64,000 nucleotides of DNA, from positions 2,099 through 66,098 of the IMG/VR virus record IMGVR_UViG_3300006213_001191; one strand, 5' to 3'. The position numbers were made by a program, and so were the translations under genes. The stretch comes from a virus (lineage: Duplodnaviria; Caudoviricetes). Positions 1,142 to 23,820 of this stretch are shown piece by piece. The notes beneath the pieces were generated by a model. It had not been told where the DNA came from. It did not search any database and saw nothing but the letters and a program-made list of their open reading frames with translations. How positions within the stretch are numbered: position 1 is the stretch's first letter; every line of letters begins with the position of its first letter.

Positions 1142-1158
1142 AGTAATAAGCCTGAATC

Positions 1159-1341: not shown

Positions 1342-1414
1342 GCACCTCCTTAAAAATCAATCATTCTATATCTGCACAATAAAATATTACACCATTAAAA
1401 TTTGGGCTTTTACA

Positions 1415-2764: not shown

Positions 2765-2831
2765 AATCTGTTTCGCACATTCATATGGTTTTTGCTCTCT
2801 CTTTGATAAAGTTCTTTGAATAGTCTGCTTA

Positions 2832-3851: not shown

Positions 3852-4129
3852 TTTAATTTACCTCCAATTTACATTTTTATAAATCCCGGCCGCGGTTTAT
3901 GCTGGCATTTTACTCTTTTTAATTGCGTAATGCAATAATGCCAAATTCTACTTAAAAAATTTTCTGGATTCAAAATTTTTGACCTTTATCCTATGTTTTT
4001 TGTGCATATTGCACAAAAACTATCTATCTCGTATAAAATTTGACTTCTTCAAAAAATCATTCCCTATTATTTTCAAAAATAATTGAATTTTTATAAATAA
4101 AAATAGTGATAATCACTATTTGATTACCA

Positions 4130-5600: not shown

Positions 5601-5765
5601 ATTTTAATCTTTATCCGCTATTCTTTCTATAAATATATAAAAAATATATAAAAATTTTTTTCATATAACAGTATCTTTTCTTCCTCACCAAAAACATTTA
5701 CCACCAATTAGATTTTCATCTGTCAGTCAACAATGCGTTAAAAAACAAAAAAAGGAGTTACGCAT

Positions 5766-6845: not shown

Positions 6846-6981
6846 GAAAGACTTATTTTTTATAGTAGAAGAGGCAATTATGTTAAACAAGTAAAATATA
6901 ATAGTTATTGATATTTAAAATTTACAATACCCTTTTATATTTTTTCTTAGCACAAAAGCCTCTTCCATATCACTTTTTGTC

Positions 6982-7140
6982 TATGCTAAAAGACATGCCA
7001 GATATTCATCCGCCAACTGTCTGGAAATAAATGTCTGGACAACCCCATCCACCGAAAAATATTCCTCTTTTATATTATCCCAAATAGCATACGGCTCTTC
7101 AAAAGCATCCGTGGTTTCACAAATCATATATCGTTCCATA
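6982..7140 (-). CDS. Small hypothetical protein (~52 aa, MERYMICETTDAFEEPYAIWD...); coordinates approximate
   Basis: Manual translation; RBS GAGGT. Confidence 0.55.
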
Positions 7141-7191
7141 TTCTTATACCTCTTTCCTCTGGCAGCCTAACTATTTATTTTTTTGCTAAAA

Positions 7192-7365
7192 CTATGTGTT
7201 TTGTATATATTCTTCTACATCTCTTCTGGTCACTATCCATTTTCCGCCAATGAAATGCCCTTCTATAATATTTTCATGTATTAACTTTAATGCTGTATTT
7301 TTTCCTATATGCAGAACTTTCTGTAAATCTTTCAATGTTAAAGTATCTGGTACATTATCAAGCAT
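7192..7365 (-). CDS. Second excisionase-like (HTH_17) protein, 57 aa
   Basis: Manual translation MLDNVPDTLTLKDLQKVLHIGKNTALKLIHENIIEGHFIGGKWIVTREDVEEYIQNT; RBS AAGGAGG. Confidence 0.75.
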   Translation of the reverse strand: MLDNVPDTLTLKDLQKVLHIGKNTALKLIHENIIEGHFIGGKWIVTRRDVEEYIQNT

Positions 7366-7582
7366 TTTAAGTGCCTCCTTTATTTTTTATTAACCCAATG
7401 TTTATGAAAAATCGGTTTATATAAGCTCTTTCAGGTTTACTACAGATTATTCGCTGCCCTTTGAGTATAAAATTATTTTATTGATTATAAATATTTAAAC
7501 TTGATACTTTCATCAATATAAAAAAGTTCCTGCTTAAATCAGATAACTTGTATTCTTTCAGCCAAAGATACCAGATAATAAA

Positions 7583-7634
7583 TAGGTGTCAGTATGGTAC
7601 AGACTATCACCTAATCTGTACCCACTGACACCTA
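7583..7634 (-). terminator. Long hairpin downstream of the DUF5688 gene
   Basis: TAGGTGTCAGTATGGTACAGA / TCTGTACCCACTGACACCTA imperfect inverted repeat. Confidence 0.55.
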
Positions 7635-7666
7635 CAGTTCTTACTTTTCCCGCTGTCTTTTTTATG

Positions 7667-8566
7667 CTATTTTGCAATCATCATCTTTCCCAAAGTCGTG
7701 TTGTAATAATACACATGATAGGAAAGTATTTCTTCTGGCTCCAGTTCAGAATCATTTACCTCTGACACAGCCCTTGCAAGTTCCATCAGATTATCCTTCA
7801 TCCAGAGTTTTGGTATCACAAGCACTTCATGCACAGAAGAAGGCAGCAGCCAGAAATCGTCTTTCAGAAAACAGCCTATTTCACGAAGTATTTCTTCATC
7901 GCACATATATATTGCGCCGTTCTGACCGCGTTTGCTGCCAAGAATATATATAGGCGTATCCTCTATGCCGTCAACCGGTTTCATTTCGCTTTCATCTAAG
8001 AGTAAATTTAATACATCTGACATCTTTCGGAAATCCACATCGTGATTTCTCATATTTCCCCATGCAGTGTCATGAAGGAGGCTTTCGCTTACTCCCCACA
8101 ATGCCATATGTTCATTCCTAACCTGAAACGCCATATTTTCCTCTAGTCCGGTGTCCTTCAGAATTACATAATAAACCTGTGACAAATCAAGGTATTTTCT
8201 GTGCGGAACTTCATTAAGAAAATCTCTGTTTTTTTCTGTATTAATTACTTTTACGTGTATATTATTCTTCGCCGAATCCCACTGGATAAACTCTGAAATA
8301 TCTTTTCCGATACATATATGATTTCTGCAGATTTCGCAGATTTTTTCTGCTATTTCACTGATATCCCCACAGTGTAAGATATAGTGTTGATACCACTTGT
8401 CCATAGGGACAAGTGGATGTATATTTGTGCCGGGTTTTACCAGCATCAAGGAATGTTTTATGCTGTTATTCATTCCTCTCAATGTCTGCTTCTCCATTTT
8501 ATATTCGTCTCCAAGCTTTATCTGCAGTTCGTTCATAACCGCAGATAAAAATTCTTCAAAATTCAT
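7667..8566 (-). CDS. DUF5688-like protein
   Basis: C-terminal FWLLPSSVHEVLVIP..LSYHVYYYN motif. Confidence 0.75.
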   Translation of the reverse strand: MNFEEFLSAVMNELQIKLGDEYKMEKQTLRGMNNSIKHSLMLVKPGTNIHPLVPMDKWYQHYILHCGDISEIAEKICEICRNHICIGKDISEFIQWDSAKNNIHVKVINTEKNRDFLNEVPHRKYLDLSQVYYVILKDTGLEENMAFQVRNEHMALWGVSESLLHDTAWGNMRNHDVDFRKMSDVLNLLLDESEMKPVDGIEDTPIYILGSKRGQNGAIYMCDEEILREIGCFLKDDFWLLPSSVHEVLVIPKLWMKDNLMELARAVSEVNDSELEPEEILSYHVYYYNTTLGKMMIAK

Positions 8567-8578
8567 TCTTTTTTCCTC

Positions 8579-9285
8579 CTACGCTGCCTGTGCTGATTTT
8601 GTTCTGGCGAGGACTCTCATTACCTTTTCATACAGCTCCGCCGACATTTCCTCTGGTTTTCCAATATCATACCTCTCCCTGACCTTCTCTATTGTAACCC
8701 CTGTTCTGTCTAGTTCTGCCTGAAAGGAGTTTATCTGTTCTTTTGAAAGACAGGAATTTTTTCTGCTTCTGGCTTTTGTGCCAAACTCATATACTAACTG
8801 CCCTTTTCCATTTATAATAGAAAGTCCCGTAATCTCCCTGTCTTCATTATACTCAATAAAGTGTACTGAAAAATGCTCACTGCTGTAATATCTGTCGCCT
8901 CTCTGCTGAATACCGGCTTTTTCCGCTGGTATCCATATAAAAGGTGCAGTGTAAAGCTCTCTTCCAATCCCCCAGTTAAAACATGCCCTTTTAAAACTGT
9001 CAGAAGCCTGCGATTTCTCTTTTTCCGCATAGCTGGTAGTTCCTACATCCTGTTTTGATACCCAGCAGCCAGAAGCTTTGTCATAAATTTCCACTGTACA
9101 GTACAGGTTTCCGTCTATACACTGGTGGCTCCGCTTCCAGCCAAAAAGACCAAAGGTTTCATCAAGAATCCTCTGGTCTACTCTTGCATCCTTATACAAC
9201 AGAGGCTTAACCCCTTCTCATTCACCACTGCTGCCCTGCACTCAATTTCATTTGCGCGCAGCAGCCGGATAATACTTTTTTCCAT
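8579..9285 (-). pseudogene. Sak/Rad52-like single-strand annealing protein, split by an apparent 1-nt deletion near 9200
   Basis: ATG 9285 gives MEKSIIRLLRANEIECRAAVVNEKGLSL; the frame then shifts to LYKDARVDQRILDE...EKEKSQASDSFKRACFNWGIGRELY. Confidence 0.75.
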
Positions 9286-9300
9286 TGTTTTTCCTTTCTT

Positions 9301-9633
9301 TTAGTCTGTCTCACTGCCCCAGAAACATCCGCTTTCAAATTCACTGTCCACATGCTCCACAAGCTCCTGATATGAACTGTCTTCCTTTTTCAGCCAGTCC
9401 TGATAAATCTTTTCCAGTATTCTCGTACTCTGCTCTATAAGGCTTAACAGCACCGCATCTGATATGGAGTCTGCTTTTTCCATAAGAATATTGTATAAGC
9501 TCGAAAATACCTCTATCTTATAAGCCTCTCCATAAACAGACTGCTTATCCTGCATCAAAATGGATTGTTTGAAATCCTGAAGCTCGCTGTACAGGCGTTT
9601 TATAAATTTCTCTCTGACTGCGCTTTTCTCCAT
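9301..9633 (-). CDS. Hypothetical protein
   Basis: In operon; RBS GGAGG. Confidence 0.75.
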   Translation of the reverse strand: MEKSAVREKFIKRLYSELQDFKQSILMQDKQSVYGEAYKIEVFSSLYNILMEKADSISDAVLLSLIEQSTRILEKIYQDWLKKEDSSYQELVEHVDSEFESGCFWGSETD

Positions 9634-9644
9634 ACTGCCGCCTC

Positions 9645-10574
9645 CTATGCTGCCCTCACCTGAAATCTTCTGGAACTGGAAACCTTTGCATAATTCTTAT
9701 AAATTTCCGGCTGCTCCTGCTTTATCCTTCTGGTGTCAAGCCTTGTTGTATCCACATTGCTCCATGATACCTGATATTTCCCGCTGTATGCCACCTCATT
9801 ATCTCGCATAAAAAGCTTTACTTCCTGCTCAATCTGCTTCTGCTCTTCCTGCAGGCTGGAAATGGAAAGCAGTATTTCCTCTCTGCGTTTCAGCTTGTCG
9901 TCAAAGCCTACCAGCTCAATTTTTCTTTCTTTTCTTGCCGTATGAAAATACTGCTCCAGCACCTCGTCACAGACTGTGGAGCCATCGGGCGGCGGAATGG
10001 TTCCTGCTTCCACATAATTTTTCCAGAAATTTTCTTCCGCTGCTGTAAGATGTTCAATCAGCGCGTCGTCCCAGACAAGTTTCCTATATGTAAATTCTCT
10101 GCCGAGAATCACTGCCGCAAGATACCATGTTCTTTTTCCCGTCACTGCCATATAATGATAGCACTGCATAATATAATGAAGCGGGATATCACCGTCTTTC
10201 CATTTGTCCACATTGTATGCACTGGCGGTTTTGCACTCAAGCCCTGCATCCTCTCCTGCTACAAAACGGTCGATATCTGCAATCATAAAAGGATGCTGTG
10301 TGCTGCGGTACATAAAGTTGGAACGCCGCACCTTCAGACCTGTCGCTTCCATAAACCTCCTTGCAACATAATCCTCAAGGTCGTGTCCCTGCCGGACTGC
10401 CTCGCTATACAGTTCCTTTATTTCTGCGCTGGTTTTATCCATAAATACCTTCATTGGGCTGCTGTATGGATTCACACCGCAGACTGCCCCTGCATCAGAA
10501 CCGCCGATTCCAGATTTTCTCAATCTCATCCAGTCTTCGCGGCTCATTTCTGCTGTTGAAATTTTTTGATACAT
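9645..10574 (-). CDS. YqaJ-family viral recombinase / exonuclease
   Basis: WMRLRKSGIGGSDAGAVCGVNPYSSP, GLECKTA, HYIMQCYHYMAVTG; start placed at ATG 10574. Confidence 0.92.
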   Translation of the reverse strand: MYQKISTAEMSREDWMRLRKSGIGGSDAGAVCGVNPYSSPMKVFMDKTSAEIKELYSEAVRQGHDLEDYVARRFMEATGLKVRRSNFMYRSTQHPFMIADIDRFVAGEDAGLECKTASAYNVDKWKDGDIPLHYIMQCYHYMAVTGKRTWYLAAVILGREFTYRKLVWDDALIEHLTAAEENFWKNYVEAGTIPPPDGSTVCDEVLEQYFHTARKERKIELVGFDDKLKRREEILLSISSLQEEQKQIEQEVKLFMRDNEVAYSGKYQVSWSNVDTTRLDTRRIKQEQPEIYKNYAKVSSSRRFQVRAA

Positions 10575-10696
10575 AACTTGTTTTCCTTTCATTGATATAT
10601 TTTTGTTTATTCCTAAACCCATAACAGGGACAGCCAAAATCAGACATTCCAGCTATCCCTTTTCCAATAGTCCCCAAATATCAAATTTTGTCTCCG

Positions 10697-11630
10697 CTAT
10701 GCCGCGCTGACAATCTGATATGCCCTGTCAATCATTGGATTTCCATCCATTGTACGGATAAAAAGATTCTCATTATAATTCGCGGTTCTGCGGAGAGGCT
10801 CAGAATGTGTGGCAAAATCAGATACCGCGTTGATAAAAATGATAAGCATTGTTTCCCACATTTTTCAAATCAGGAGCCTCATAATAGCGGCTTCTCATAT
10901 CTTCCCTTAATTTATGGAGATTCCTCATCTGCATAACAGTCGCGCCTTTTTCAGCAGGCAGAAGAAGCTCTATGTATTCCCTGACCTGCTTGTCGGTTAT
11001 TTTCTGACGGCGGAGTTTTTCAAAATCACTTCCAAGATTCTCCATATATTTATCTGCCAGAAAAAGCGTATCTTTTGCTTCCCGAATCTTACCCTTAATA
11101 TTTCCGGTATGAATCATGCTCCAGCTCCGCTTTGCAGTATTCAATGCAAGATTCAGCGTGTTGTTGCATACTACCCTGACCGGCGTAACAGCAACCCTGA
11201 CCGCACCGGAACCGTCATGCGTATTGCTGAATATCAGATACGGGCTGATTCTTTCGCCCGAAATAATAAATTCCCTCGGAAGCCTTGCAAGAAGCCATAC
11301 CTTTCTGCCGCCCTGCAGAGAACCTGCTGTTTCATATCTGACACCATATCCCAGAAGTTCATCTGTAAACGCAAACGCTTCGTGATTTTGGATAATCTTA
11401 TACCTGTCTGTTACCACACCGAGCACACGCTGGTCGGTATCCCTGACATTGGCTTTGTAACCCTCTACTATTCCATTCGTTTTTGTGTAAATCGGCATCT
11501 GGATTACTTTCCAGTCCAATCCCGCCAGATGCAGCGCCGCTTCTGACTTTGGTGCCTCCTCTACCCTTGTTCCCAGACCATGCCAAGGTTTTTCTCTTGT
11601 GTAAAACATTGTTTCTGCATTTGCTGCCAT
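10697..11630 (-). pseudogene. DUF932-family protein with a +1 frameshift in a T5 run near 10835
   Basis: MAANAETMFYTREKPWHGLG...FSNTHDGSGAV..TPVRVVCNNTL; the conserved C-terminus FINAVSDFATHSEPLRRTANYNENLF...AYQIVSAA continues in another frame to TAG 10697. Confidence 0.85.
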
Positions 11631-11633
11631 AAC

Positions 11634-11708
11634 TTATTTCCCCTTTCCTCTTAATTCATTCCAAACAACTATGATTGTGCTTAATACCGCAAAAATAATT
11701 TTCTGCAT
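11634..11708 (-). CDS. 24-aa hydrophobic peptide MQKIIFAVLSTIIVVWNELRGKGK
   Basis: RBS GGAGG; coupled to the DUF932 start. Confidence 0.5.
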   Translation of the reverse strand: MQKIIFAVLSTIIVVWNELRGKGK

Positions 11709-11725
11709 TTCCTATCCTCCTTGTG

Positions 11726-11923
11726 TTAATCCAGCTTCTTTTCAATGACTACCGCTATATCATTCAGCAGGGTAATTGCCTTTTCCAGCGCTGCTTCCAA
11801 AACAACGCACACAGCAGGCGGAATCTCCTTTACAGATGAATTTTCCAGCATAATCAGATTGTCTCGGATGCCGTTCATAAGCTGCTCTGCCTCGTGAATC
11901 TTGTCTAAATCTTTCAATTCCAT
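11726..11923 (-). CDS. Hypothetical protein
   Basis: RBS AGGAGGTG before ATG 11923. Confidence 0.7.
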   Translation of the reverse strand: MELKDLDKIHEAEQLMNGIRDNLIMLENSSVKEIPPAVCVVLEAALEKAITLLNDIAVVIEKKLD

Positions 11924-12171
11924 AAGTTTCACCTCCTTTCTGATTTCAGGCATAAAGAAAGAGGCAGAGCATTTTCTGCTCCACCTCTGTTTACAGGTTT
12001 CTCTGTGTGTATTGACTACCAGTATTATTTTACCGCAGGCACAATTGCTTTTATTTATTTTTTTACTGGTATCTATTTCCCTATCTGATAAGATATTACA
12101 TAACCAGAAAAGGAAAGTTTTCGTTATGTCAAAGCTTTGGGCTGTTTTAAATAATACAAAATACGAAAGAA

Positions 12172-13881
12172 TTAAGCATCTTTATAATATGTCTTATACA
12201 AAACTCCATCAATATAAAAATCAATCGTATATAAATCCCCATACCAGTATACATCAAGCACAGCTCTGCGGCCGTCAGCATCGATACTGTAATATTCGCC
12301 ATTTTCATATATCAAATCGCCATACCAGTCCGTATTATAATGGTTTCCTCCCTCAGATATAGATTCCGATAGTATAAAACCAATCACATTCCCATTTGGA
12401 GAATCATATATCTCTATATCCATACTATCTGGAAATTCTGACTGGGGAGTGTCCTCTGCTTTGCTGTATGTTCCTGCTAACAGCCTATATTCTTCATTTA
12501 ATATTTCCTGAAGAATATTCTCCCATCCGCTGCTTCCTTCAAAAATATCTGCCGTTCCGTCACCATTAAGAATAATCGTTGCACCGCTGCTGTCATAATC
12601 ATTAAAATCCATGTCGTAAAATTCTATCATATTGCCTTCTGAATCTTTAATTGCAAAATCCCACTTTGTCTGGCTGGTTTCATATGTAAAATCAACCTGA
12701 AATGCTGACAGATATTCCAGTATATCAAGCTCCAGAATATCTTCCTCCCAGTTATTTGTATCTGCCGCCGAAGCATATAAAGAATAAATATCCACACCGA
12801 TATTATTCACAAATGTAATCGGTACTGTAACTACACCTTCTTTTTGGGATATTGCAGTATCAGTTTCCGGGTTTTGTGATTCTGGATTTTTCGATTCTTG
12901 GTTTTTCGGTTCCTGACTTTGTGACTTTTTCGATAAACTGTAATCATAGTACATTTCATCAAGCGCTTCATTAATATCATCTGCTTCTTTTATCTGATTA
13001 CCTTCTATAACCAGATATACATTTCCCAGTTCCTTATTCTTTATAGAATCGTTTTCAAGCTGGAACTGTATTATATTCTTTTCATCTAATTTATATTGTA
13101 CGACACGTGTTGCTCTTTCAAATTCATCCCCTCCTACAAAGCTGCTCCATTTACCGCCCTTCCAGTGATATTCTAAAATCTGTTTTAATGTAATGCTATC
13201 TTCCATTAATTCATAATTTTGTATATAGCTGAGTTTTTCATTATCATTATTAGATGTTTTTATCATACTGACTATCATGCATATGCCAATAAGTATAAGC
13301 AGCCCTGTATGTAATTTTGATATGTATTTATGTATATTTCCTTTAAAATTAATATCGCATTTTATATCTTCAATAAATTTTTTTACTTTTTTGCCAGAAT
13401 TGGAATAAAATATAACAGAACCTTTGCTCGATGCAATCTCTACTTTTTTATTGACAAAACCTCCAATAATTACAATCGCCCAGTAAATAATATAAATTAA
13501 AAGATAACCAGCTAAATGAAGGTCAATAAAAGAAAGACATAGCACTATTATAAAAAATGCTAAAATCGCAACAGGCGCTAACATGGTACACATATTGATA
13601 CTTTGTATGTTTTCAATCTCAATCTCTCCTATACAGCCCTGTTTTTTTGAAACAGGAGAAACCTTCAATATATTATTTCCGAGTTCTGCTTCATATTGCT
13701 TTTCTGATTTTGAAATTATTTTCTTTGAGAGAAAAGTGTACTTCTTTTTCTGTTCTGTTTCTGAATCCTTTTCTTTTTTTAAGAAATCTTTTTCATTCAT
13801 TTCCTCCTGCAAAGATAAACTTATTCCGCAATTCGGGCAGAAATTCCCGTCAATCTCAGCTCCACAGTTTTTACATTTCAT
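12172..13881 (-). CDS. Zinc-ribbon membrane protein with large extracellular acidic domains
   Basis: MKCKNCGAEIDGNFCPNCG; three hydrophobic helices. Confidence 0.85.
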   Translation of the reverse strand: MKCKNCGAEIDGNFCPNCGISLSLQEEMNEKDFLKKEKDSETEQKKKYTFLSKKIISKSEKQYEAELGNNILKVSPVSKKQGCIGEIEIENIQSINMCTMLAPVAILAFFIIVLCLSFIDLHLAGYLLIYIIYWAIVIIGGFVNKKVEIASSKGSVIFYSNSGKKVKKFIEDIKCDINFKGNIHKYISKLHTGLLILIGICMIVSMIKTSNNDNEKLSYIQNYELMEDSITLKQILEYHWKGGKWSSFVGGDEFERATRVVQYKLDEKNIIQFQLENDSIKNKELGNVYLVIEGNQIKEADDINEALDEMYYDYSLSKKSQSQEPKNQESKNPESQNPETDTAISQKEGVVTVPITFVNNIGVDIYSLYASAADTNNWEEDILELDILEYLSAFQVDFTYETSQTKWDFAIKDSEGNMIEFYDMDFNDYDSSGATIILNGDGTADIFEGSSGWENILQEILNEEYRLLAGTYSKAEDTPQSEFPDSMDIEIYDSPNGNVIGFILSESISEGGNHYNTDWYGDLIYENGEYYSIDADGRRAVLDVYWYGDLYTIDFYIDGVLYKTYYKDA

Positions 13882-13908
13882 GGTATTTCCTCCTTATAAA
13901 ATAGTATT

Positions 13909-14889
13909 TTATGACTCAAATGCTTCCTCAAAATAATAATATTCATCTATCTCTTGTCCATCTATTTCAATCATAATAAATGAATTTCCTTGTTCATTTC
14001 CAATATAATAAGTTAAAGTTTTACCACTACTTTCATCCATCCCTTTATATGTATATTTATCTAATGGCTCAACAATTGTCTTATATACAACACCATTATA
14101 CAATACCTCAATATTTCCAACCATATTTGAATCTATAGATGAATATACTGAAAAAATTAAATTATTATATTCATTTACACTTCCATTATATTTTCCTGCA
14201 TAATAACTCGCATAGATATTGCCATTCTCATCATAAATGAAATCTTTGTTCAAATTATTGTCTATATACAATGTATCATCTTTTAACACTACAATAACAT
14301 CACCAAACTCTACTTCGATTACCGAAACTGTATTTGGATCAATATTTAAATATATAGTCCCTGTAGCTTTTCTATCGGCAGATACAGTAGCACTAAAATA
14401 TTCACCATGGCTACTGATTCCATATAATTGGTCTACAGCATATTCATCCGCATATACTTTAAACATTGAAGCGGTAATTGCAAATGTTTCACTTCCAGTA
14501 TTTTCGGTATTAACTATAAAATAACAATAAATACTGTTATCATAATTGTAATCATATCCCCATTCTGTTATTGTGATAGATTGTCTTGCCCCATTCTCAG
14601 CTTCCATATTAAAAGTTTCCCCTACATGATATCTATCATCTATTATATTTGAAGAAATTGTTTCTTTTTCACTATTATTAAATGATGTTATAGATTCATT
14701 TATCGTCTCCTTTTCATTATTATCAGATGATATCACAGATGTATTGCTTTTTGTTACTTTATCTGTAACAGTAACATTATTTGTTGATGTATCACTAAAC
14801 ATACCAATTATTCCAAATACAACTACTATTGCAATCACTATTATTAAAATCTTTTTTATCTTCATGCCTAATCTCTCCTGTTTTAACAA
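13909..14889 (-). CDS. Membrane-anchored DUF4352-like protein
   Basis: N-terminal TM, S/T/N-rich linker, YHVGETF..VNTENTGSETFAITASMFKVYAD..SADRKATGTIY. Confidence 0.7.
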   Translation of the reverse strand: MLKQERLGMKIKKILIIVIAIVVVFGIIGMFSDTSTNNVTVTDKVTKSNTSVISSDNNEKETINESITSFNNSEKETISSNIIDDRYHVGETFNMEAENGARQSITITEWGYDYNYDNSIYCYFIVNTENTGSETFAITASMFKVYADEYAVDQLYGISSHGEYFSATVSADRKATGTIYLNIDPNTVSVIEVEFGDVIVVLKDDTLYIDNNLNKDFIYDENGNIYASYYAGKYNGSVNEYNNLIFSVYSSIDSNMVGNIEVLYNGVVYKTIVEPLDKYTYKGMDESSGKTLTYYIGNEQGNSFIMIEIDGQEIDEYYYFEEAFES

Positions 14890-15053
14890 ATTAAATTTTG
14901 CTTAAATATACATCTTTAAAAACATCAAGATTTTATATATTTCTATAAATATTTTTTACTTTCTCAAAAATATAATATTTATTCCGATAACCTTTAATCA
15001 TTATATATGTAAGTTTATCTCTAAATCTTTGATATTTTATTACTATAAAGGAG

Positions 15054-15359
15054 GTGTCTATAATGAATATCGGAAACCGTATCACTTATTTCAGGACACA
15101 AAAAGGATACTCTGTTAATAAACTTGCTAATTTAGCTGGAATCTCCCAAAGTTATCTTCGTGACATTGAATTAGAAAATAAAAATCCTACTATAGAGATT
15201 ATTTCTTGTTTATGTGATACTTTTGGAATCTCACTTAAAGATTTTTTTGATGAAAACGCTGCTGCCAGCCTTGCCGACGACCCTTTGGTACAACGGATTT
15301 ACCAGCTTTCTCCAAAACAGAGAGAAACCTTATTAGCCTTCCTGAATACAATAAAATAA
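15054..15359 (+). CDS. XRE-family HTH repressor
   Basis: RTQKGYSVNKLANLAGISQSYLRDIELENKNPT. Confidence 0.93.
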   Translation: MSIMNIGNRITYFRTQKGYSVNKLANLAGISQSYLRDIELENKNPTIEIISCLCDTFGISLKDFFDENAAASLADDPLVQRIYQLSPKQRETLLAFLNTIK

Positions 15360-15365
15360 GAAAAC

Positions 15366-15404
15366 GCTTCCGATAAATGCTTTTCATTTACCGGAAGCAT
15401 TTTT
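15366..15404 (+). terminator. Rho-independent terminator
   Basis: GCTTCCGATAAATG-CTTTT-CATTTACCGGAAGC followed by ATTTTT. Confidence 0.75.
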
Positions 15405-15660
15405 GTTATATCTACCATTTATTTAGTTAGCTACATATTTACTCTACTATACATTTATAATAATTTAATACTTTTCAATTTACAAAACTTATTTTTGTTT
15501 TGTATTTATCAAAATATTCTTTTTATTATGATTTTCAATATTAGACAAATCCTCCTGTACTAATAACTCTTTTAATACATATCCCCATTTACCTCCTAGC
15601 AGAATTTTCCATTTGTACCTTTTCACAATCTAAATCAAATTGCTATTTTATTTTAACCTA

Positions 15661-15693
15661 TATAGATATAATTGTCAATATCTATAGATATAA
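15661..15693. promoter_or_regulatory. Operator-like inverted/direct repeat
   Basis: TATAGATAT(15661-69)/ATATCTATA(15678-86); TATAGATATAA occurs twice. Confidence 0.4.
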
Positions 15694-15929
15694 CTTTTTT
15701 GATTTTCTTATTCCTATTACTATCTTACTGACAAACTTTATAACTTTGGATTAGAATTTATGTTCTAATAAAAATGCTTTTACAAAACCAAAAATATATT
15801 CATGTTAAAAAATAAAAAAACAGAGGTTCTGATAGCTATATTTCTATCAAAAACTCTGTTTTTAACATATTCTTTTTTACTTTCTAACTCTATTTATTTT
15901 CCTGCGCTTTCAAACGTTTTTCTAACTGT

Positions 15930-16127
15930 TCATTTGATTTTCAATAAGAAAATTAGAACCAGAATAGAACCACAGATAAAAACTAACGCCATAAATACAG
16001 GCTTCCAGCGATTGTATCCGTTATTCGAACTCGATTTCCTATTGGCATTTCTATGTACATTCAATACCGTAAAATCTTTGAAAGCCGTATTATTTTTGAG
16101 TGTGTCCGCATTTTCCATACATTCCAC
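15930..16127 (-). CDS. Small protein with C-terminal TM helix
   Basis: KPVFMALVFICGSILVLIFLLKIK. Confidence 0.5.
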   Translation of the reverse strand: MECMENADTLKNNTAFKDFTVLNVHRNANRKSSSNNGYNRWKPVFMALVFICGSILVLIFLLKIK

Positions 16128-16211
16128 ATAGTTATAAATCTCACACCAATCTCACAGCTTTATCTCTATAACATCTTCAATATCACATTGTAACTCTTGG
16201 CAAATACTCTT

Positions 16212-16661
16212 TTAACAAATAGTTTCTAATCTAAATGATATATTATTTTTTCTAAAGCATTGAATGATGTATTCTGCATTCATTTGAGTAATTTTATAAG
16301 CCTTTTCTTTTGTTGGATAATTATAAGTTTTGTTATATCCTTTTTCTACACTATCATACTGTAAAATAAAAAATGTTTCAAGAGCTTTCATCTGTCTACT
16401 TGTGCCTACCTCATCTAGTAGACATAATGTTTTAATCTCAAATTCATGCCCTATATTAAAATCTTTCTGCATTTCTTCTATAACATGATTTCCTTTTCTT
16501 AAAGAATAATAATGACCTGCCACTCGATGAACTGCATCTACAGAATATCCCACATAAATTTTACTATTACTCAGATTTTTTATCATATAGACACATGAAA
16601 CAGCTATATTTGCAATTATATCTCCTATATTTATTTCCTTAGTCTGATTTGATATCTTCAT
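16212..16661 (-). CDS. GIY-YIG nuclease family protein
   Basis: SCVYMIKNLSNSKIYVGYS..RVAGH..LETFFILQYDSVEKGYN. Confidence 0.85.
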   Translation of the reverse strand: MKISNQTKEINIGDIIANIAVSCVYMIKNLSNSKIYVGYSVDAVHRVAGHYYSLRKGNHVIEEMQKDFNIGHEFEIKTLCLLDEVGTSRQMKALETFFILQYDSVEKGYNKTYNYPTKEKAYKITQMNAEYIIQCFRKNNISFRLETIC

Positions 16662-16851
16662 ATTCTAATAACTCCCCTACTGTACAATGAAACATCTGAC
16701 AAAGTTTTTCAATAGTGTTATAGTCAATTCTAGCCGCCTTATCATTATATAAATTTGCTACTGTATTTCTTGCCAATCCCGTCTCATTGCACACATCTTG
16801 TATTTTCTTTCTGTCTCTGCCCATAAGTAGCGATAAATTACACTTCACCAT
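16639..16851 (-). CDS. Cro/C1-type (HTH_26-like) regulator
   Basis: KIQDVCNETGLARNTV..IDYNTIEKLCQMFHCTVGELLEY. Confidence 0.9.
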   Translation of the reverse strand: MVKCNLSLLMGRDRKKIQDVCNETGLARNTVANLYNDKAARIDYNTIEKLCQMFHCTVGELLEYEDIKSD

Positions 16852-16945
16852 GACATATACCTCCTAATTTTTTCTATTATACCCTTTTATTTTTTGAATG
16901 TCAACTAATTTGATTAACTTTCTGAAAATTTTAATCAAAAAACTA

Positions 16946-16973
16946 TTGACAATCCCGCTACATATGTTAATAT
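16946..16973 (+). promoter_or_regulatory. Putative sigma70 promoter for the amidoligase operon
   Basis: TTGACA at 16946 and TG-n-TAATAT. Confidence 0.5.
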
Positions 16974-17033
16974 ATAAACATCAGAAAGATAATCAATTTA
17001 ATCAATATATTAATCATTTAGGAGGACAAAAAC

Positions 17034-17960
17034 ATGTTAAAAAATCAATTATTTGGAGTAGAAGTAGAAATGACAGGTATCACAAGAAAAAAGGCTGCTA
17101 TGATTGTTGCGAATGTTCTTGAAACTTCACCTTCAAGAGCTGACAGCACTTGCTATTGCACACGCACTATTACCGACCAAGCATCTCGCAAATGGAAAAT
17201 CATGATAGATTCTTCTATAAATCCTCAAAGAAACGATGATAGCTTAGAAGCTCTGGATGAATACCGAGTAGAATTTGTTACCCCGCCTCTTGAGTATAAG
17301 GATATAGAACTTCTTCAAAACATCATTCGGGAACTGCGTAAAAATGGAGCAAAAACAGATAATAGCTGTGGCATACATATTCATATAGACGGAGCAAACC
17401 ATAATCCACAATCACTTAGACGGTTAATAAATTTTACAATCGCTCGACAGGATTTAATATATGAAGCCCTTGAAATTCAAAGCCGTGCAAATCATTGGTG
17501 CCATAAATTAAATAGTGCCCTGCTTACTGAAATGAAAAAAGATAAAAACCTTTCAAAAGAAAAAGCAGAAGAAATTTGGTATAGCAGCGCCAATGATGGA
17601 TACTCAGATGGTATTAATCATCAACATTATAATCGTACCCGTTATCATGGAGTAAATCTTCACAGCTATTTTTCTAAAGGCACCGTAGAATTTAGACTTT
17701 TTAACAGCACTCTTCATGCAGGAAAAATCAAAGCATATATTCAGTTTTGCTTAGCAATATCCGCATGGGCTATCACATCACAGGAAAAAATTGTATTCCG
17801 TTCTATGGCTGGCTACACCGCAGAACAGAAAGTTACAATAATGAGAAATATTCTTACCCGTCGGTTGGGACTTTATGGAGATGAATTTAAAACCTGCCGT
17901 CTCCACCTTATGACACCATTAAAGAAAGCCGCAGGAATGACCTGCAAAACAGCTGCATAA
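17034..17960 (+). CDS. Amidoligase family (Amidoligase_2-like) protein
   Basis: FGVEVEMTG, WKIMIDSSI, VEFVTPPL, SCGIHIHID, RYHGVNL, GTVEFRLFNSTL. Confidence 0.92.
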   Translation: MLKNQLFGVEVEMTGITRKKAAMIVANVLETSPSRADSTCYCTRTITDQASRKWKIMIDSSINPQRNDDSLEALDEYRVEFVTPPLEYKDIELLQNIIRELRKNGAKTDNSCGIHIHIDGANHNPQSLRRLINFTIARQDLIYEALEIQSRANHWCHKLNSALLTEMKKDKNLSKEKAEEIWYSSANDGYSDGINHQHYNRTRYHGVNLHSYFSKGTVEFRLFNSTLHAGKIKAYIQFCLAISAWAITSQEKIVFRSMAGYTAEQKVTIMRNILTRRLGLYGDEFKTCRLHLMTPLKKAAGMTCKTAA

Positions 17961-18008
17961 TAAAACACTTGCTGACCTATCGGCATAACGGGGAAATAGG
18001 AGAAAAAG

Positions 18009-18206
18009 ATGAAAGCATATGGAATGATTGCGCAAATAGAAAAAGGACGACATTATGCATCTGATGATGTATACATAAAAAACTGCCGTTTAAATAATGG
18101 AAAACATCGACACCAACGTGTTCGCCGACATAAAAGAATTTACAATCATATTGAACGGTCAAGGTCAAAAGCAATTTTAAACAAAGAATTACAAAATTGG
18201 AGGTAA
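18009..18206 (+). CDS. Small basic hypothetical protein
   Basis: RBS AGGAG; lies between amidoligase and GGCT. Confidence 0.65.
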   Translation: MKAYGMIAQIEKGRHYASDDVYIKNCRLNNGKHRHQRVRRHKRIYNHIERSRSKAILNKELQNWR

Positions 18207-18216
18207 ATATAATATT

Positions 18217-18660
18217 ATGGAAAAATTGTATATTGCTTATGGAAGTAACTTAAACTTATCACAAATGGCTGTTAGATGCCCATCCGCAAAAGTTTACGCA
18301 AAAGGAATATTAAATAACTGGAAACTTGTTTATAGGGGTAGGAAATTAAATGCACATGCCACAATAATAAGAAAGCAGGATTCTATTGTTCCAGTTCTTG
18401 TCTGGAAGATTTCTACTGAAGATGAAAAGAAACTAGATATTTATGAAGGTTATCCACATTATTACTTTAAAAAGAATATTATGGTGTATATTAATGGAAA
18501 GAAAAAGAAGGCAATGGCATATATTATGAATGAAAACCAGCTTCCCGGAAAACCTTCTGACCGGTATATTCAAACTATTTTACAGGGATATATTGATAAT
18601 GATATGGATGTTACTATCCTAAAAAAATCTTTAGACTTAAATTGTATAGAATGTAAATAA
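18217..18660 (+). CDS. Gamma-glutamylcyclotransferase (AIG2-like) family protein
   Basis: LYIAYGSNLNLSQMAVRCP, LDIYEGYP, PSDRYIQTILQGY. Confidence 0.92.
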   Translation: MEKLYIAYGSNLNLSQMAVRCPSAKVYAKGILNNWKLVYRGRKLNAHATIIRKQDSIVPVLVWKISTEDEKKLDIYEGYPHYYFKKNIMVYINGKKKKAMAYIMNENQLPGKPSDRYIQTILQGYIDNDMDVTILKKSLDLNCIECK

Positions 18661-18674
18661 AATGCCTGCTACAA

Positions 18675-18701
18675 AAAGACGTTCATGTTGTGAACGTCTT
18701 T
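18675..18701. terminator. Terminator between convergent genes
   Basis: AAAGACGTTCA-TGTTG-TGAACGTCTTT perfect stem. Confidence 0.8.
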
Positions 18702-18724
18702 CCTTTGACAATAGTATTGCAGTA

Positions 18725-18979
18725 CTATTTGACTGATGGATTCTTAGGTTCTTTCGTTGTATGCGGCTTTTTTTTCAAATCGTCATCTCTTACAATTAAT
18801 TCGTCAAGTCTGCAACCTAAAGCTTTGCAAATCAGGTCCAAATGGTCAAGATTTACTCGGTCATTTAACTCATGGTACAACTCATTAATTGTATTTGGGC
18901 GTATGCCTGTTTTTCTTGCTAAATCAGCCTGCGTCAAACGTCTTTCCCCAAGTCTTGTCGATAATAAAATCCTTATCAT
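18725..18979 (-). CDS. Cro/C1-type (HTH_26-like) regulator
   Basis: LTQADLARKTGIRPNTINELY..LDLICKALGCRLDELI. Confidence 0.92.
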   Translation of the reverse strand: MIRILLSTRLGERRLTQADLARKTGIRPNTINELYHELNDRVNLDHLDLICKALGCRLDELIVRDDDLKKKPHTTKEPKNPSVK

Positions 18980-19133
18980 ACGTCTTGCTCCTTCCGTTAT
19001 AAGATAACACCATTGAAATTAAAATGGTGAATTTTGTTATTTTATAACGGAATATGATATAGAGATTGTATGGGATGTTGAATATAGGCGATATATAGCA
19101 AATTTTCCAACAAAAAAATTTTTTACAAAACAA

Positions 19134-19169
19134 ATAAGCTTCTTGAAATTGATAATTCAAGAAGCTTAT
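19134..19169 (-). terminator. Terminator of the CRISPR mini-array transcript
   Basis: 14-bp perfect stem ATAAGCTTCTTGAA/TTCAAGAAGCTTAT followed on the minus strand by TTGTTTTG. Confidence 0.75.
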
Positions 19170-19172
19170 CTT

Positions 19173-19580
19173 GTGTCAATGCCCTATTTCGGGCTACTTT
19201 CATTTCTACTTGTAGGCTGGAAGAATGAAACAAATGAAATCGTAAATGTGTCAATGCCCTGTATCGGGCTTCTTTCAGTTCCACTAAAATGGTAATTACA
19301 TTTTGGGCAGAAAATAAGCAGTGTGTCAATGCCCTTCTTCGGACTTCTTTCATTTCTACAATTAATGAAATTGTTTCAAGCAAAATTCTTGTTGTGTGTC
19401 AATGCCCTTCATCAGGCTTCTTTCATTTCTACCTGCAGGAAGATATAAAGTGTTCTTCATTGGAGATATGTGTCAATGCCCTTCATCGAGCCTCTTTCAT
19501 TTCTACAGTATTTTAAAGTTGTCAACACTAGTACATACGAAAGGTGTCAATGCCCTGCATCGGGCTTCTTATATTTAGTA
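19173..19580 (-). CRISPR. Orphan CRISPR mini-array: 6 degenerate 37-nt repeats, 5 spacers (38, 38, 36, 37, 37 nt); no cas genes in window
   Basis: Repeats start at 19173, 19248, 19323, 19396, 19470, 19544; + strand consensus GTGTCAATGCCCTtcaTCGGGCTTCTTTCATTTCTAC; minus-strand form has a GCCC-N6-GGGC hairpin followed by 8-nt ATTGACAC. Confidence 0.93.
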
Positions 19581-19605
19581 TACTACTTTTTTGATTCTGT
19601 GAAAA
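19577..19605 (-). promoter_or_regulatory. Putative sigma70 promoter for the mini-array
   Basis: Minus strand TTTTCA-N17-TATACT; predicted start near 19570, inside the truncated first repeat. Confidence 0.65.
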
Positions 19606-19672
19606 GCTATTTCTAAAAATTTTGTTTCCCACCACCCAAAGAGGGAAGCAGGAAACATTTTTTCATTTGTGG

Positions 19673-20674
19673 CTATTTAATCAGCTTTCCACTTTTAAGC
19701 AGAGAAAGCAATCTGTTATTTTGGTCTGCACTACCTCTATAACCTGTAATCCTGTTTTTAGCTGCAATCTTTTGGCGATTTGCAAAAGAGCTTTCTATTC
19801 CCACAGCTTTCAATCCCTCTACAATACTAACACTATCACCTGTATAACGTGGATAGTAGCTTACCTGCGACTGTGGCTCCGGTTTTGGAGCTGGTGCAGA
19901 AGCCGTATATAATCCCCGAATATCCCCGTCATTCACATACAAGCCATTATCCAGCTTATATTTTGCCTGACCGCTTACAATCGCTGTGATTGTTCCATGC
20001 CCGCTGCCTCCAGTTGCGTACTGGATTCCGCATGGAAGTGTTGGCGCCGGATAAGAAGTTCCATATTCCACAGCCTGTCCAATAGAATATTTATGAACGG
20101 TCTGTGATGTTTGAGTGGCAGTAGCTACTATACTCCCTGTAATCCCTTTCACAATCGCCTGCGCGCATTTTTCTGCGTTCCAGCGGTCCGCATCATCTTT
20201 GTCGTCGACGAATGCGCACTCTATAATGATTGCCGGCGCCTTTGTATGCTTTAAGACATAATATCCCTGATTAGTTTTAAATCCCCTATTGGTAATTCCA
20301 AGGGCTGCCGCTATCTCTGCGCATATTCTTGTCCCAACATCTTTTGTGCCGTTATCATAGCCCCAGACTTCGACACCGCCTGTTCTGTCATCACCAGCAG
20401 TGTCCTCTCTTCCGGCATTAAGGTGGATAGAAACATCTAAATCTACTGTATGGGCGTTACATTTTGCCACAATAGCACTAAGATTCTCTCCTGCGGTTCT
20501 TCCGCTGTCGTCTGTACAGTCATAGACTGTGTGTCCTGCTGCTCTTAACAGTTCCACTACGCTATTCTTTACTTTTCTGTCCTCGGTCACTTCGTCTAAA
20601 ATTCCGTTTGCGCCTCTGCAAATGAGGGAGTGCCCTGCATGAATGTTGTATGTACTCATATTATTTTTCCTCAC
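19673..20674 (-). CDS. Endolysin, N-acetylmuramoyl-L-alanine amidase (Amidase_3) with C-terminal binding region
   Basis: IHAGHS, LDEVTED, DVSIHLNA, APAIIIECAFVD. Confidence 0.95.
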   Translation of the reverse strand: MRKNNMSTYNIHAGHSLICRGANGILDEVTEDRKVKNSVVELLRAAGHTVYDCTDDSGRTAGENLSAIVAKCNAHTVDLDVSIHLNAGREDTAGDDRTGGVEVWGYDNGTKDVGTRICAEIAAALGITNRGFKTNQGYYVLKHTKAPAIIIECAFVDDKDDADRWNAEKCAQAIVKGITGSIVATATQTSQTVHKYSIGQAVEYGTSYPAPTLPCGIQYATGGSGHGTITAIVSGQAKYKLDNGLYVNDGDIRGLYTASAPAPKPEPQSQVSYYPRYTGDSVSIVEGLKAVGIESSFANRQKIAAKNRITGYRGSADQNNRLLSLLKSGKLIK

Positions 20675-20939
20675 TTTCCTGTTTTACAATAAAATTTTCC
20701 CATTTCTTATATGCATCAACATATGTTTCATTTTTGTCACCATTATATGTGATTTCATAATACATGCCATCGGAAACAGTTGTGCTTACTAATGCTTTAT
20801 TATTTTGTAATGTCTTGCACGACCAGACAACAAAAACATCATCTTCTGTAATCTGCTTTTTATCTGTTTGGTCAACATTCGCATTAAAATAATTCACAAT
20901 AATTTCTTTGCAAAGTTTTAAAAATTTATCATTGTCCAT
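20661..20939 (-). CDS. Conserved phage protein (DUF6275-like)
   Basis: DDVFVVWSCKTLQNNKALVSTTVSDGMYYEITYNGDK. Confidence 0.75.
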   Translation of the reverse strand: MDNDKFLKLCKEIIVNYFNANVDQTDKKQITEDDVFVVWSCKTLQNNKALVSTTVSDGMYYEITYNGDKNETYVDAYKKWENFIVKQESEEK

Positions 20940-20941: not shown

Positions 20942-21166
20942 TTATTCTGCCTCGCTTTCCTTATTTTCTTTTACTTCCGGCAGACCCGCCACAGAGGTAA
21001 GCAGGCTCGCAATTCCCGCCAGTGCTGCAGTTCCGATTACTGTTACCCAGTCTACCGCTGTTATGGTGGCGGCAGCAGGCAGCAGCGCAACCGCTGTCTG
21101 TGCCATGGTTTTTCCTGCTCTGATTCCGGCTGCTTTCAGCCACTTTTTTGTTTTTTCGCTTATCAT
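20942..21166 (-). CDS. Holin (r1t-like)
   Basis: WLKAAGIRAGKTMAQTAVA..LASLLTSVAGLPEV pattern; two TMs. Confidence 0.9.
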   Translation of the reverse strand: MISEKTKKWLKAAGIRAGKTMAQTAVALLPAAATITAVDWVTVIGTAALAGIASLLTSVAGLPEVKENKESEAE

Positions 21167-21588: not shown

Positions 21589-23820
21589 TTAATATCCTAT
21601 TGCGAGCCAGTTTACTTTTATTGGATAATCTGCCAATACACTATTTCCATTTGCCACTCTAATACTTACATTATTAGTTGTCTGGCTGCCTATTGCAACA
21701 GTGGAAGTACATTCTATGCTGTTGTTATAGGTATGTATTTTTGTTACAAATACATATGGTACTGCATTAAATGTAATTGGAAATGTAACAATCCCCTGCC
21801 GAACATAACCATTTGCATTTGGGGGTTCATATAATCCCCAACATATTTTAAGCCCATTGGGAAGAATAAATTTTCCTGCTGTCGTCTGTTTTAAACTGTT
21901 ATTTATGGTGTCAATATTATCCTTTAAGCTTTTTCCTGCTTTTGCGGATAAAGATATTGTACTGTCATTTGAAGTAAGGGAATCTGTAATCCCTCTCCAT
22001 GTATTTGTGTCTGTTGGTGTTGCCCAAGTCCCATCTCCACGCAAAAATGATGCCTGTTTTCCGGCAGCTGGTGCTGGAACCAGTCCTGCTTTTCCGGCAG
22101 TACTTGCTGTTGCAGCAGTCATGTTGCTGTAAGTAGTATTATTATCGCTTCCCCAAACAGCGGTTCCATCTGCACTCCATCTTAAAATTTGCCCTGAAGA
22201 ACCTCCTGAAGGGATATGCTTATTTCCTGCTGTTGTTGGATGGGTATAGTTGTTTGCATTTGTGGCTATCCCATCCAACTTTTTCTTATCCGCTGCACTT
22301 AATAAACCATTTGCAGACTGTGTAGCTGTACTGTAAGTAGTATTATTATCACTTCCCCATGCAGCAGTTCCATCTGCACTCCATCTTAATATCTGACCTG
22401 AAGAACCTCCTGACGGAATATGTTTATTTCCTGCTGTTGTTGGGTGAGCATAATTATTTGCATTTGATGCTATTCCTGCCAGTTTATTTTTCTCTGTTGT
22501 TGTATAATCGTTTGAAGAAAGTCCTTTTCCTGACTCTTTATCTACTTTATTACTTACTGTATTCCAAAGGGTCCTCTCAGCAGAGGTGATATGCTTTACA
22601 GCATCGCTTATATGGCTGTATGCTGCGTTCCAGCTATCCAGCAGTGCCTGTGTTATTTTATCCAGAACGCCTTTATTACTGTGTGTATGCTTCTTTGTAT
22701 TGGCGTCATTCCAGTTTGTCCGTTCTGCTGAGGTGATATGTATTGTGCTATCTGCTGTATGTGTATCTAATGCTGTTTTGTCTGCCTTTTTTCCAATCGC
22801 TGCGTCTAATGCTACGGAAACATCTTTATTCGCCTGTATTGCGTCTGCTACCTCTTTCAGAGTGTCTAAAGTTTCTGGTGCTCCGCCAATCAAATCAGCT
22901 ATCTTTTGGTCTGTATATCCCGTTGCCTGCCTATACGCAGAATCTGAATAATCCTTTGCATTATCAAGAGTTTCGTTCCACGTATCTTTTTCACCGTCTG
23001 TTACAAACCTATGTGTAGAATCCTGAACAATTATATTGGCAGGATGCGTATTTGGATGTACATAATTATTCGCCCCTTCTTCTATTCCTCCCAGTTTATC
23101 CTTTTCTTTTGTTGTATAATCATTAGCAGATAATCCTTTTCCTTCAATTTTATCCACTTTATCAGACACAGTATTCCATAACTTTCTTTCATCAGAAGTA
23201 ATATGAATCACCTTGTCACGAATATGCCCTATCAAATCAGACACTGCTTTTTTTAACTTTCCAAATTCCTTAAAAATATTTCTCCCACTTTCCAGTTCTG
23301 AAAGTTCTTCTGCTTCATCATACTCAGGATATAGAACTTTTTGCATATCCTCCGCCAATGCATACGCTTCCATTTCCACATTAATTACAATATTCTCCAC
23401 ATTACTTACCTTAGTATAATATTCCTGTATAATTTCAACAGGATTATCCTTTGGAGGTAAATAATCAGCCTCTTTTGCAATCGCAATAGAATATAGTACC
23501 TCTTCCACATCTCCAGCTTTTTTTGCAATAATCCCTATTTCCTTCATCCGATATCCGACGTCTAATTCCTTATTTGTAATTAACGTCTTTAACAATACTT
23601 CGTTTTCATCGGAAATTAATCTGCTGCTAAATCCCACTTCCTGCCTTTTTTGTTTTAATTCGGTTCTTATTCTCAATGCCTCTGCAGTCTTTTCCTCCTC
23701 TTCATACTCCCCACTCCCTATCACCATTTTCACAAATTCTATTTTATAACCCTCAATAATACTGTCCGCCATAAGTTTAGCCCCCGCATCTGTCATAATT
23801 GCTACTTTAAAACTTGACAT
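21589..23820 (-). CDS. Tail fibre protein
   Basis: Baseplate-attachment N-terminus, repeats KGLSxNDYT and HPTTAGNKHIPSGG, C-terminal GKFILPNGLKICWG. Confidence 0.9.
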   Translation of the reverse strand: MSSFKVAIMTDAGAKLMADSIIEGYKIEFVKMVIGSGEYEEEEKTAEALRIRTELKQKRQEVGFSSRLISDENEVLLKTLITNKELDVGYRMKEIGIIAKKAGDVEEVLYSIAIAKEADYLPPKDNPVEIIQEYYTKVSNVENIVINVEMEAYALAEDMQKVLYPEYDEAEELSELESGRNIFKEFGKLKKAVSDLIGHIRDKVIHITSDERKLWNTVSDKVDKIEGKGLSANDYTTKEKDKLGGIEEGANNYVHPNTHPANIIVQDSTHRFVTDGEKDTWNETLDNAKDYSDSAYRQATGYTDQKIADLIGGAPETLDTLKEVADAIQANKDVSVALDAAIGKKADKTALDTHTADSTIHITSAERTNWNDANTKKHTHSNKGVLDKITQALLDSWNAAYSHISDAVKHITSAERTLWNTVSNKVDKESGKGLSSNDYTTTEKNKLAGIASNANNYAHPTTAGNKHIPSGGSSGQILRWSADGTAAWGSDNNTTYSTATQSANGLLSAADKKKLDGIATNANNYTHPTTAGNKHIPSGGSSGQILRWSADGTAVWGSDNNTTYSNMTAATASTAGKAGLVPAPAAGKQASFLRGDGTWATPTDTNTWRGITDSLTSNDSTISLSAKAGKSLKDNIDTINNSLKQTTAGKFILPNGLKICWGLYEPPNANGYVRQGIVTFPITFNAVPYVFVTKIHTYNNSIECTSTVAIGSQTTNNVSIRVANGNSVLADYPIKVNWLAIGY
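22126..22466 (-). repeat. Tail fibre internal duplication (two ~135-bp copies 204 bp apart)
   Basis: NANNYxHPTTAGNKHIPSGGSSGQILRWSADGTAxWGSDNNTTYS twice. Confidence 0.9.

Follow-up and report, generated by a model that had tools for sequence, protein, structure and literature searches.

Genomic context of the array

The stretch of DNA considered here (64,000 nt, hereafter the window) comes from an IMG/VR virus record of 66 kb. A tyrosine integrase is encoded at the left end of that record, which makes the phage a temperate one. Its structural genes are of phage type (terminase, portal, head protease, tail sheath, baseplate and tape measure) and are accompanied by genes for a YqaJ exonuclease, a Rad52-like protein and a DUF5906 protein of recombination or replication. 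The carrier as a whole is myovirus-like, and its hosts are Lachnospiraceae of the mouse gut. On the minus strand, a tail fibre gene (21589-23820) is followed by a holin gene (Phage_r1t_holin, 20942-21166), a DUF6275 gene (20661-20939), an endolysin gene (Amidase_3, 19673-20674), the repeat array that is the subject of this report (19173-19580), and a gene for a Cro/C1-type HTH regulator (18725-18979). The array lies 93 nt from the endolysin stop; beyond the HTH gene, the plus strand carries a GGACT gene and then an amidoligase gene.

Six 37-nt repeats, with starts 73-75 nt apart, and five unique spacers make up the array. In plus-strand order the spacers measure 38, 38, 36, 37 and 37 nt, and each is absent from the rest of the window. 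On the plus strand the first 13 nt of the repeat, GTGTCAATGCCCT, are invariant in 6/6 copies; positions beyond these are variable, so that all six repeats differ from one another, and in the copy at 19544 the last 10 nt are degenerate. Read on the minus strand, the repeat consists of GTAGAAATG, six variable nucleotides, GCCC, a 6-nt loop, GGGC and ATTGACAC, that is, a 4-bp hairpin (GCCC/GGGC) followed by an 8-nt handle.

All units are given here in the minus-strand direction. Repeat 6 (19544-19580) comes first, with its stem-loop and ATTGACAC handle intact and its 5' part degenerate (TACTAAATAT in place of GTAGAAATGA). Spacer 5 (37 nt, 19507-19543), for which no target was found, leads to repeat 5 (19470-19506), whose GCUC/GGGC stem has one G.U pair in the minus-sense RNA. 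Then come spacer 4 (37 nt, 19433-19469); repeat 4 (19396-19432; stem GCCU/GGGC, one G.U pair); spacer 3 (36 nt, 19360-19395), after which longer natural alleles have one or two extra units before repeat 3; repeat 3 itself (19323-19359; stem GUCC/GGGC, one G.U pair); spacer 2 (38 nt, 19285-19322); repeat 2 (19248-19284); spacer 1 (38 nt, 19210-19247); and repeat 1 (19173-19209), the last, with an intact handle and a terminator hairpin directly after it.

Direct repeats of constant length that alternate with unique spacers of similar length are the hallmark of a CRISPR array, and that is the arrangement found. Tandem Repeats Finder did not report the array when run on the window, as is to be expected when unique spacers part the repeats, and an Rfam search gave chance-level matches only, with no CRISPR-DR family among them. 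The array is accompanied by no recognizable cas gene within the window: PADLOC models run against its 84 ORFs gave no cas model among the 25 listed of 26 matched families (the matches listed were to HTH-type and a few unrelated families only), and 14 host type III-D proteins found nothing better than E = 0.16 by tblastn. Within the window, then, the locus has the makeup of a cas-less mini-CRISPR array on a viral genome.

The original prediction, made from the sequence, had described six 37-nt repeats with five unique 36-38-nt spacers just past the endolysin, a stem-loop with an 8-nt handle, and no cas gene. The repeat and spacer mapping bears out the first of these, the minus strand does carry the 4-bp stem-loop and the ATTGACAC handle, and the absence of cas genes holds for the window by PADLOC (among the matches listed) and by tblastn of host proteins. 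Its description of the array as prophage-borne is reasonable given the integrase at the end of the record and the phage-type structural genes.

Several other features of the window deserve mention in their own right. Amidoligase (17034-17960), GGACT cyclotransferase (18217-18660) and two small HTH genes form one module at 16639-18979, which is widespread in viral contigs: among the 80 HTH loci in IMG/VR closest to that of the window, GGACT is present at 52 and amidoligase at 47. The HTH gene was considered as an Aca-like partner of the array and was rejected, with the repeat found at none of these 80 loci. No record of the exact endolysin was present in the contig index, and the early protein at 54129-55115 has no relatives in IMG/VR. 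An element of about 45 nt (a GGCTG...CAGCC hairpin, AGTACATAYGAAAGGA, ATG) is duplicated at 55185-55236 and 55815-55861; the copies form the 5' UTRs of two plus-strand early genes and may act as a shared regulatory leader. In a sister assembly (L305, 7048-8255), the integrase directly follows a GIY-YIG gene and the same lysis-array-HTH-amidoligase block is present. Relative to this assembly, about 15 kb of early genes (DUF4352, DUF932, YqaJ, Rad52-like, DUF5688 and DUF5906) intervene in window positions 1-16200, and the arrangement may be mosaic or reflect a second element.

The repeat family and its type III-D hosts

A core pattern of handle plus stem was run against genomes as a search for the repeat family. 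In Lachnospiraceae it recovered, from many genomes of mouse, rumen, rabbit and human-gut origin, arrays that have about 73-nt spacing and reach 20 units. Repeats in these genomes take the form GTAGAAATG-N6-GCCCG-N4-AGGGCATTGACAC, the conserved blocks being common to the phage repeat, and the 339 spacers of the host arrays are mostly 35-39 nt long, comparable to those of the window. The repeat of Lachnospiraceae bacterium 62-26 (L198/G001) is within 1-2 nt of the phage consensus. The agreement between phage and host repeats expected of viral mini-arrays is thus found at the level of the family Lachnospiraceae.

Genes adjoining the host arrays encode Cas6, Csx20, a TIGR03986 RAMP protein, Csm6/CARF and CARF/HEPN proteins, Csx19, a Csx7-like protein, Csx10 and a Cmr4-like protein. 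The TIGR03986 RAMP protein scores above its curated cut-off; Csx10, Csx19, the Csx7-like protein, Csx20 and Cas6 (PF10040/TIGR01877) were matched, some of them below cut-off. A 509-aa protein at one host locus (L217), with homologues beside other arrays, matches TIGR02577 (Cas10/Cmr2) at E = 1e-6, which is below the curated cut-off. When the genome array loci with three or more repeats were examined over neighborhoods of up to 8 kb, a type III-D homologue was present at 23 of the 44. Judged by these protein matches, the host locus is a type III-D-like system with a weak Cas10 assignment. The original prediction of a Cas6-dependent host system, probably of type III, agrees with the presence of both Cas6 and type III-D genes beside family arrays in Lachnospiraceae. 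The check it had proposed, a search of host genomes for a cas locus with a matching repeat, succeeded in genomes of the host family, as in strain 62-26 with its difference of 1-2 nt.

Spaced repeats need not be CRISPR, and protein-binding iterons or a coding repeat can be envisioned instead, the more so as small ORFs overlap the array region and the repeats are imperfect. This explanation is very improbable. Dozens of genomes have long arrays of this repeat family, with unique spacers and with cas genes alongside, a recurrence that places the array far beyond chance, and the overlapping ORFs match other loci through the repeats only. The family-wide arrays adjoining cas genes refute the non-CRISPR reading in practice, and the proximity to cas genes expected of CRISPR repeats is thereby found for the family. 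The identity of 19173-19580 is secure: a temperate phage here carries a true CRISPR array with no cas genes of its own. By repeat comparison, this array most likely originated from type III-D arrays such as those of the host family.

A relative of the phage and the host system have also been found in the same genome. One Lachnospiraceae genome (G003) contains both a type III-D locus of this repeat family (L120) and a prophage whose structural genes match the window at 73% identity across 8.5 kb; the 13 kb beside the tail-fibre gene of that prophage contain no array. Related prophages occur in 10 of 401 sampled Lachnospiraceae genomes. Among the genome matches, strains 62-26 and C64_1 are isolates with a cognate type III-D locus.

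Two further observations came from these searches. Between the Cas10-like and CARF genes of one host type III-D locus (L217, 3061-6975) lies a gene for a 1304-aa protein with no NCBIfam match, which may be a novel type III accessory effector. Separately, about 75 viral contigs from one IMG/VR sample (3300045988; L005-L086), mostly of about 13 kb, each have one match to the 22-nt core pattern only; these look like a coincidental conserved sequence of a small phage family and not a solitary repeat unit.

Array strand and candidate transcription signals

Three kinds of evidence assign the array RNA to the minus strand: the orientation of host arrays, the signals that bracket the phage array, and the substitutions in the stems. 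In host genomes the arrays follow a conserved leader and cas operons of the same orientation, and their degenerate terminal repeat is at the ATTGACAC end; the direction of operon and leader, together with the position of the terminal repeat, gives a transcribed sense running from GTAGAAATG to ATTGACAC, which corresponds to the minus strand of the window. The conserved host-type leader motif is absent upstream of repeat 6 in the window, so the phage array does not have the leader that usually accompanies a CRISPR array.

On the minus strand, a promoter-like site (19577-19605; TTTTCA, 17 nt, TATACT), recognized as a consensus match, overlaps the start of the array such that its -10 box falls inside the degenerate 5' part of repeat 6. 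At the other end, a hairpin of 16 pairs with a T-rich tail, resembling an intrinsic terminator, lies directly after the last repeat (19132-19171, minus strand). Between the endolysin stop and the array, the minus strand is predicted to fold into a strong hairpin followed by AAAAUUUUU (19623-19657); with its U-run this is a possible terminator of the late operon.

In the eight repeats of the longest natural allele, 4/4 stem substitutions give G.U pairs, and do so in minus-sense RNA only. Extended to the 124 unique repeats of the family as an argument for strand, this pattern is weak (14 G.U pairs and 14 mismatches in the minus sense against 9 and 19 in the plus sense), and only the 4/4 of the phage itself are suggestive. 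The handle is changed at 0/64 sites, compared with 23/232 sites elsewhere in the repeats (Fisher p = 0.006), although the difference from other family-conserved positions is not significant (p = 0.10). Strain 62-26 offers a side observation on stems: several family arrays on one of its contigs (G001 contig C47, 20192-24145) have GCUC/GGGC, with a G.U pair, as the standard stem, and one repeat has a compensated GCUC/GAGC stem. Given that standard stem, G.U stems can be taken as normal in functional host arrays.

Related arrays in other phages

At least six other phage-linked contigs bear arrays of the family, and three of these arrays adjoin lysis genes; no cas genes were present in the examined stretches of the six. 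In two (L063 and L184) holin/endolysin, array and HTH gene follow one another in the same order and orientation as in the window, and a third (L057) has the gene order of the window with the array inverted. The remaining arrays lie near a holin gene (L021), near portal and sheath genes (L163) and near baseplate genes (L174). A host-type leader is present in L184, L063, L021 and L174 and absent from both the window and L057. L184 has ten identical repeats; L057 has stem mismatches and one mutated handle.

The L163 array (116-372) comes from a mouse-gut MAG, MGBC111501, in which several short contigs have imperfect family arrays; one of these array contigs carries portal and sheath genes related to those of the window. 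In the mouse gut, carriage of such arrays by phages may be common.

Natural alleles and recurrence in RNA libraries

Mouse-gut metagenomes from several studies contain the array stretch, and RNA libraries contain it as well. An identical HTH protein served to locate ten independent assemblies, which give a nested set of alleles: eight repeats in six assemblies, seven in two, and six in one (L305, identical to the window allele). The tenth (L309) ends inside the array, so its allele is not assignable. In the seven-repeat allele one unit is lost and a hybrid repeat stands at the deletion joint. The degenerate first repeat and spacer 5 stand unaltered at the head of every complete allele, and no new leader-end spacer appears among the ten assemblies. 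Nested alleles without gains mean that the array is eroding rather than adapting, and the hybrid joint and the nesting, as read from the assemblies, indicate that units are lost by repeat-to-repeat recombination within the carrier phage lineage. A duplication at repeat 3 was entertained as a sign of acquisition and rejected: a different repeat stands at the joint, and the alleles form a nested-deletion series.

RNA-library contigs from two studies (X15 and X17) carry the array at 100% identity. They are compatible with transcription of the array, being blind as contigs to RNA strand, ends and level and open to DNA carry-over. X17 covers the array and the HTH gene and not the endolysin gene; this was left unused as a sign of expression in lysogeny, missing contig cover being no evidence.

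The search for spacer targets

No protospacer for the five window spacers or the two extra allele spacers was found in the databases searched. The searches were exact-word or small-database searches and covered INPHARED and PLSDB (blastn), IMG/VR (20-mers), JGI metagenomes (one 23-mer) and about 300 fetched loci. Peptide-level searches likewise gave no target, and no spacer targets the window itself. The whole array, compared with 401 Lachnospiraceae genomes with two candidates scored per genome, produced array-to-array alignments only. The original prediction had proposed matching the spacers to IMG/VR and gut phage catalogues; the searches of IMG/VR and INPHARED yielded no target for any of them.

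Such partial matches as exist are at the level of chance. Full-length identity of each spacer to the phage is at the null level. Spacer 5 has an exact 14-nt match to the duplicated 5'-UTR element (55211 and 55837), which was set aside as lacking significance, since matches to the window that are just as good exist for 14 of 339 unrelated host spacers. Against the fetched host cas loci, the best spacer matches are of 12-13 nt (E about 0.7-3), again a chance level.

Guides, decoys or relics

What might such an array do for its carrier? The favored reading, to which we assign a probability of roughly 0.45, is that it supplies crRNAs to host type III-D complexes. The array would be transcribed from the minus strand as a small unit of its own, from the promoter-like site overlapping the first repeat to the terminator after the last. 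Host Cas6 would cleave this RNA at every GCCC/GGGC hairpin, at the base of the stem; the resulting crRNAs would begin with the 8-nt tag ATTGACAC and would be taken up by the type III-D effector complexes of the host. Within a lysogen, these crRNAs could then detect transcripts of incoming rival phages or mobile elements and set off the host type III response, with superinfection exclusion as the outcome. Promoter, Cas6 processing, effector loading and rival targeting are all inferred steps. This reading is favored because the spacers are of host-like length and an intact Cas6 hairpin and tag flank every one of them, because a promoter-like site and a terminator bracket an array that recurs in RNA libraries, and because relatives have leaders and many identical repeats and there is published precedent (PMC6858448, PMC11656645). 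Against guide supply stand the missing protospacers and leader, the degenerate first repeat, the eroding alleles, a handle kept no significantly better than the other family-conserved positions, and the difference of all repeats from one another, which is unusual for an active array.

The missing leader, degenerate repeats, deletion series and lack of targets lend support to two other views of the locus. One is that the array is a neutral passenger: recombination would have brought part of an array, from a host or a phage, into a cargo slot behind the lysis genes, where it now sheds units. The leaderless start, the degenerate 5' end of repeat 6 and the difference of all repeats from one another would follow naturally, as would the gain-free series of nested alleles (eight, seven and six repeats), one joint of which has a hybrid repeat, the stem mismatches and mutated handle of the related L057 array, and the failure to find spacer targets. 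Neutral decay sits less comfortably with a handle that is intact in 8/8 repeats and stems that all pair in minus-sense RNA, with a promoter-like site and strong terminator that bracket the array exactly, and with the presence of the array in RNA-library contigs. Arrays of the family recur in at least seven phage lineages, moreover, and this one has been retained in assemblies of several studies and years. We consider erosion of a passenger the leading alternative, if an unlikely one.

The other view is that the repeats matter and the spacers do not. As a decoy or competitor of the Racr or Cracr kind, the repeat RNAs would fill host Cas6 and type III-D subunits with useless guides, so that the share of complexes with anti-phage host spacers would fall whatever the spacer content. 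Degenerate, non-identical repeats that retain only stem and handle are in keeping with this, as are the missing leader and the lack of a detectable target for any spacer; for other CRISPR types, the jamming of Cas proteins by repeat-mimicking phage RNAs is established (PMC10651486), and Cracr arrays of several units occur in phage genomes (bioRxiv 10.1101/2024.10.29.618823). Racrs, however, are solitary repeat units, whereas the array here has 5-7 spacers of exactly host-like length; related phage arrays with host-type leaders and up to ten identical repeats suggest that spacer content is in use; complementarity of the spacers to fetched host cas loci is no more than chance; and the main texts on Racrs (PMC10651486) and Cracrs (bioRxiv 10.1101/2024.10.29.618823) describe none for type III. 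Such competition is somewhat less probable than a decaying passenger. The specific proposal that the leaderless array acts in lysogeny or infection as an RNA-based counter-defence against type III CRISPR-Cas, by flooding complexes with harmless guides or titrating Cas6, is a shade more doubtful still.

Should the crRNAs of the favored guide-supply reading be used, prophages of gut commensals would steer an RNA-sensing, signaling form of CRISPR immunity against their rivals; in the published cases (PMC6858448, PMC11656645), such viral steering has been validated only for archaeal viruses. The system is tractable, with isolates that carry the cognate locus and natural alleles of five, six and seven spacers as ready comparisons. 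The value of the locus is that of a well-documented example on which the question of guide, decoy or relic can be posed.

Comparison with known systems

Viral arrays that do without cas genes and exploit host CRISPR systems against related viruses have already been described (PMC6858448, PMC11656645). Mini-CRISPR arrays are carried by the Saccharolobus portogloboviruses SPV1 and SPV2 (Medvedeva et al. 2019, PMC6858448), and phage and prophage mini-arrays have been surveyed, in work cited in a review (PMC11656645). The array described here resembles these viral mini-arrays (PMC6858448, PMC11656645) in its viral location, its lack of cas genes and its host-matching repeats, and equally in the presumed use of host Cas in trans and the proposed superinfection exclusion. 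Phage mini-arrays are reported to be leaderless (PMC6858448), as is the array of the window. Published viral mini-arrays have one or two spacers, whereas the phage lineage here has 5-7; their repeats are identical to those of the host, whereas those here are degenerate and the host system is a bacterial type III-D one; and their spacers matched to related viruses are the key evidence, whereas none is matched here.

With Racrs (Camara-Wilpert et al. 2023, PMC10651486) the array shares the mimicry of a host repeat by a phage, the absence of cas genes and the potential to bind Cas6 or an effector. Racrs are solitary repeat units, unlike the 6-8 repeats with regular, host-length spacers of the window lineage, and the main text of PMC10651486 does not mention type III. 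Cracr arrays (Liu et al., bioRxiv 10.1101/2024.10.29.618823) share its form, as multi-unit, array-like phage loci with degenerate repeats, and produce crRNA-like regulatory RNAs that reprogram host Cas proteins (bioRxiv 10.1101/2024.10.29.618823). Cracr spacers show partial complementarity to the promoters of host cas or toxin genes, as reported for types I and V-A only (bioRxiv 10.1101/2024.10.29.618823), while the window spacers have chance-level matches of 12-13 nt in the fetched host cas loci.

The array also resembles the chromosomal type III-D arrays of Lachnospiraceae (for example 62-26, L198/L217), in repeat (1-2 nt different), spacer length, hairpin and ATTGACAC handle. It lacks four features of those host arrays: the conserved leader, repeats identical to one another, a terminal repeat with its degeneracy at the handle end, and neighboring cas genes. 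The repeat family is now tied to the type III-D systems found widely among gut Lachnospiraceae, and several temperate phages of these bacteria carry cas-less arrays of the family, often behind lysis genes. The principle of cas-less viral arrays that borrow host Cas is already known, and the array here is a further example of it, distinguished by its link to type III-D, its 5-7 spacers, its recurrent cargo slot behind the lysis genes and its natural deletion series.
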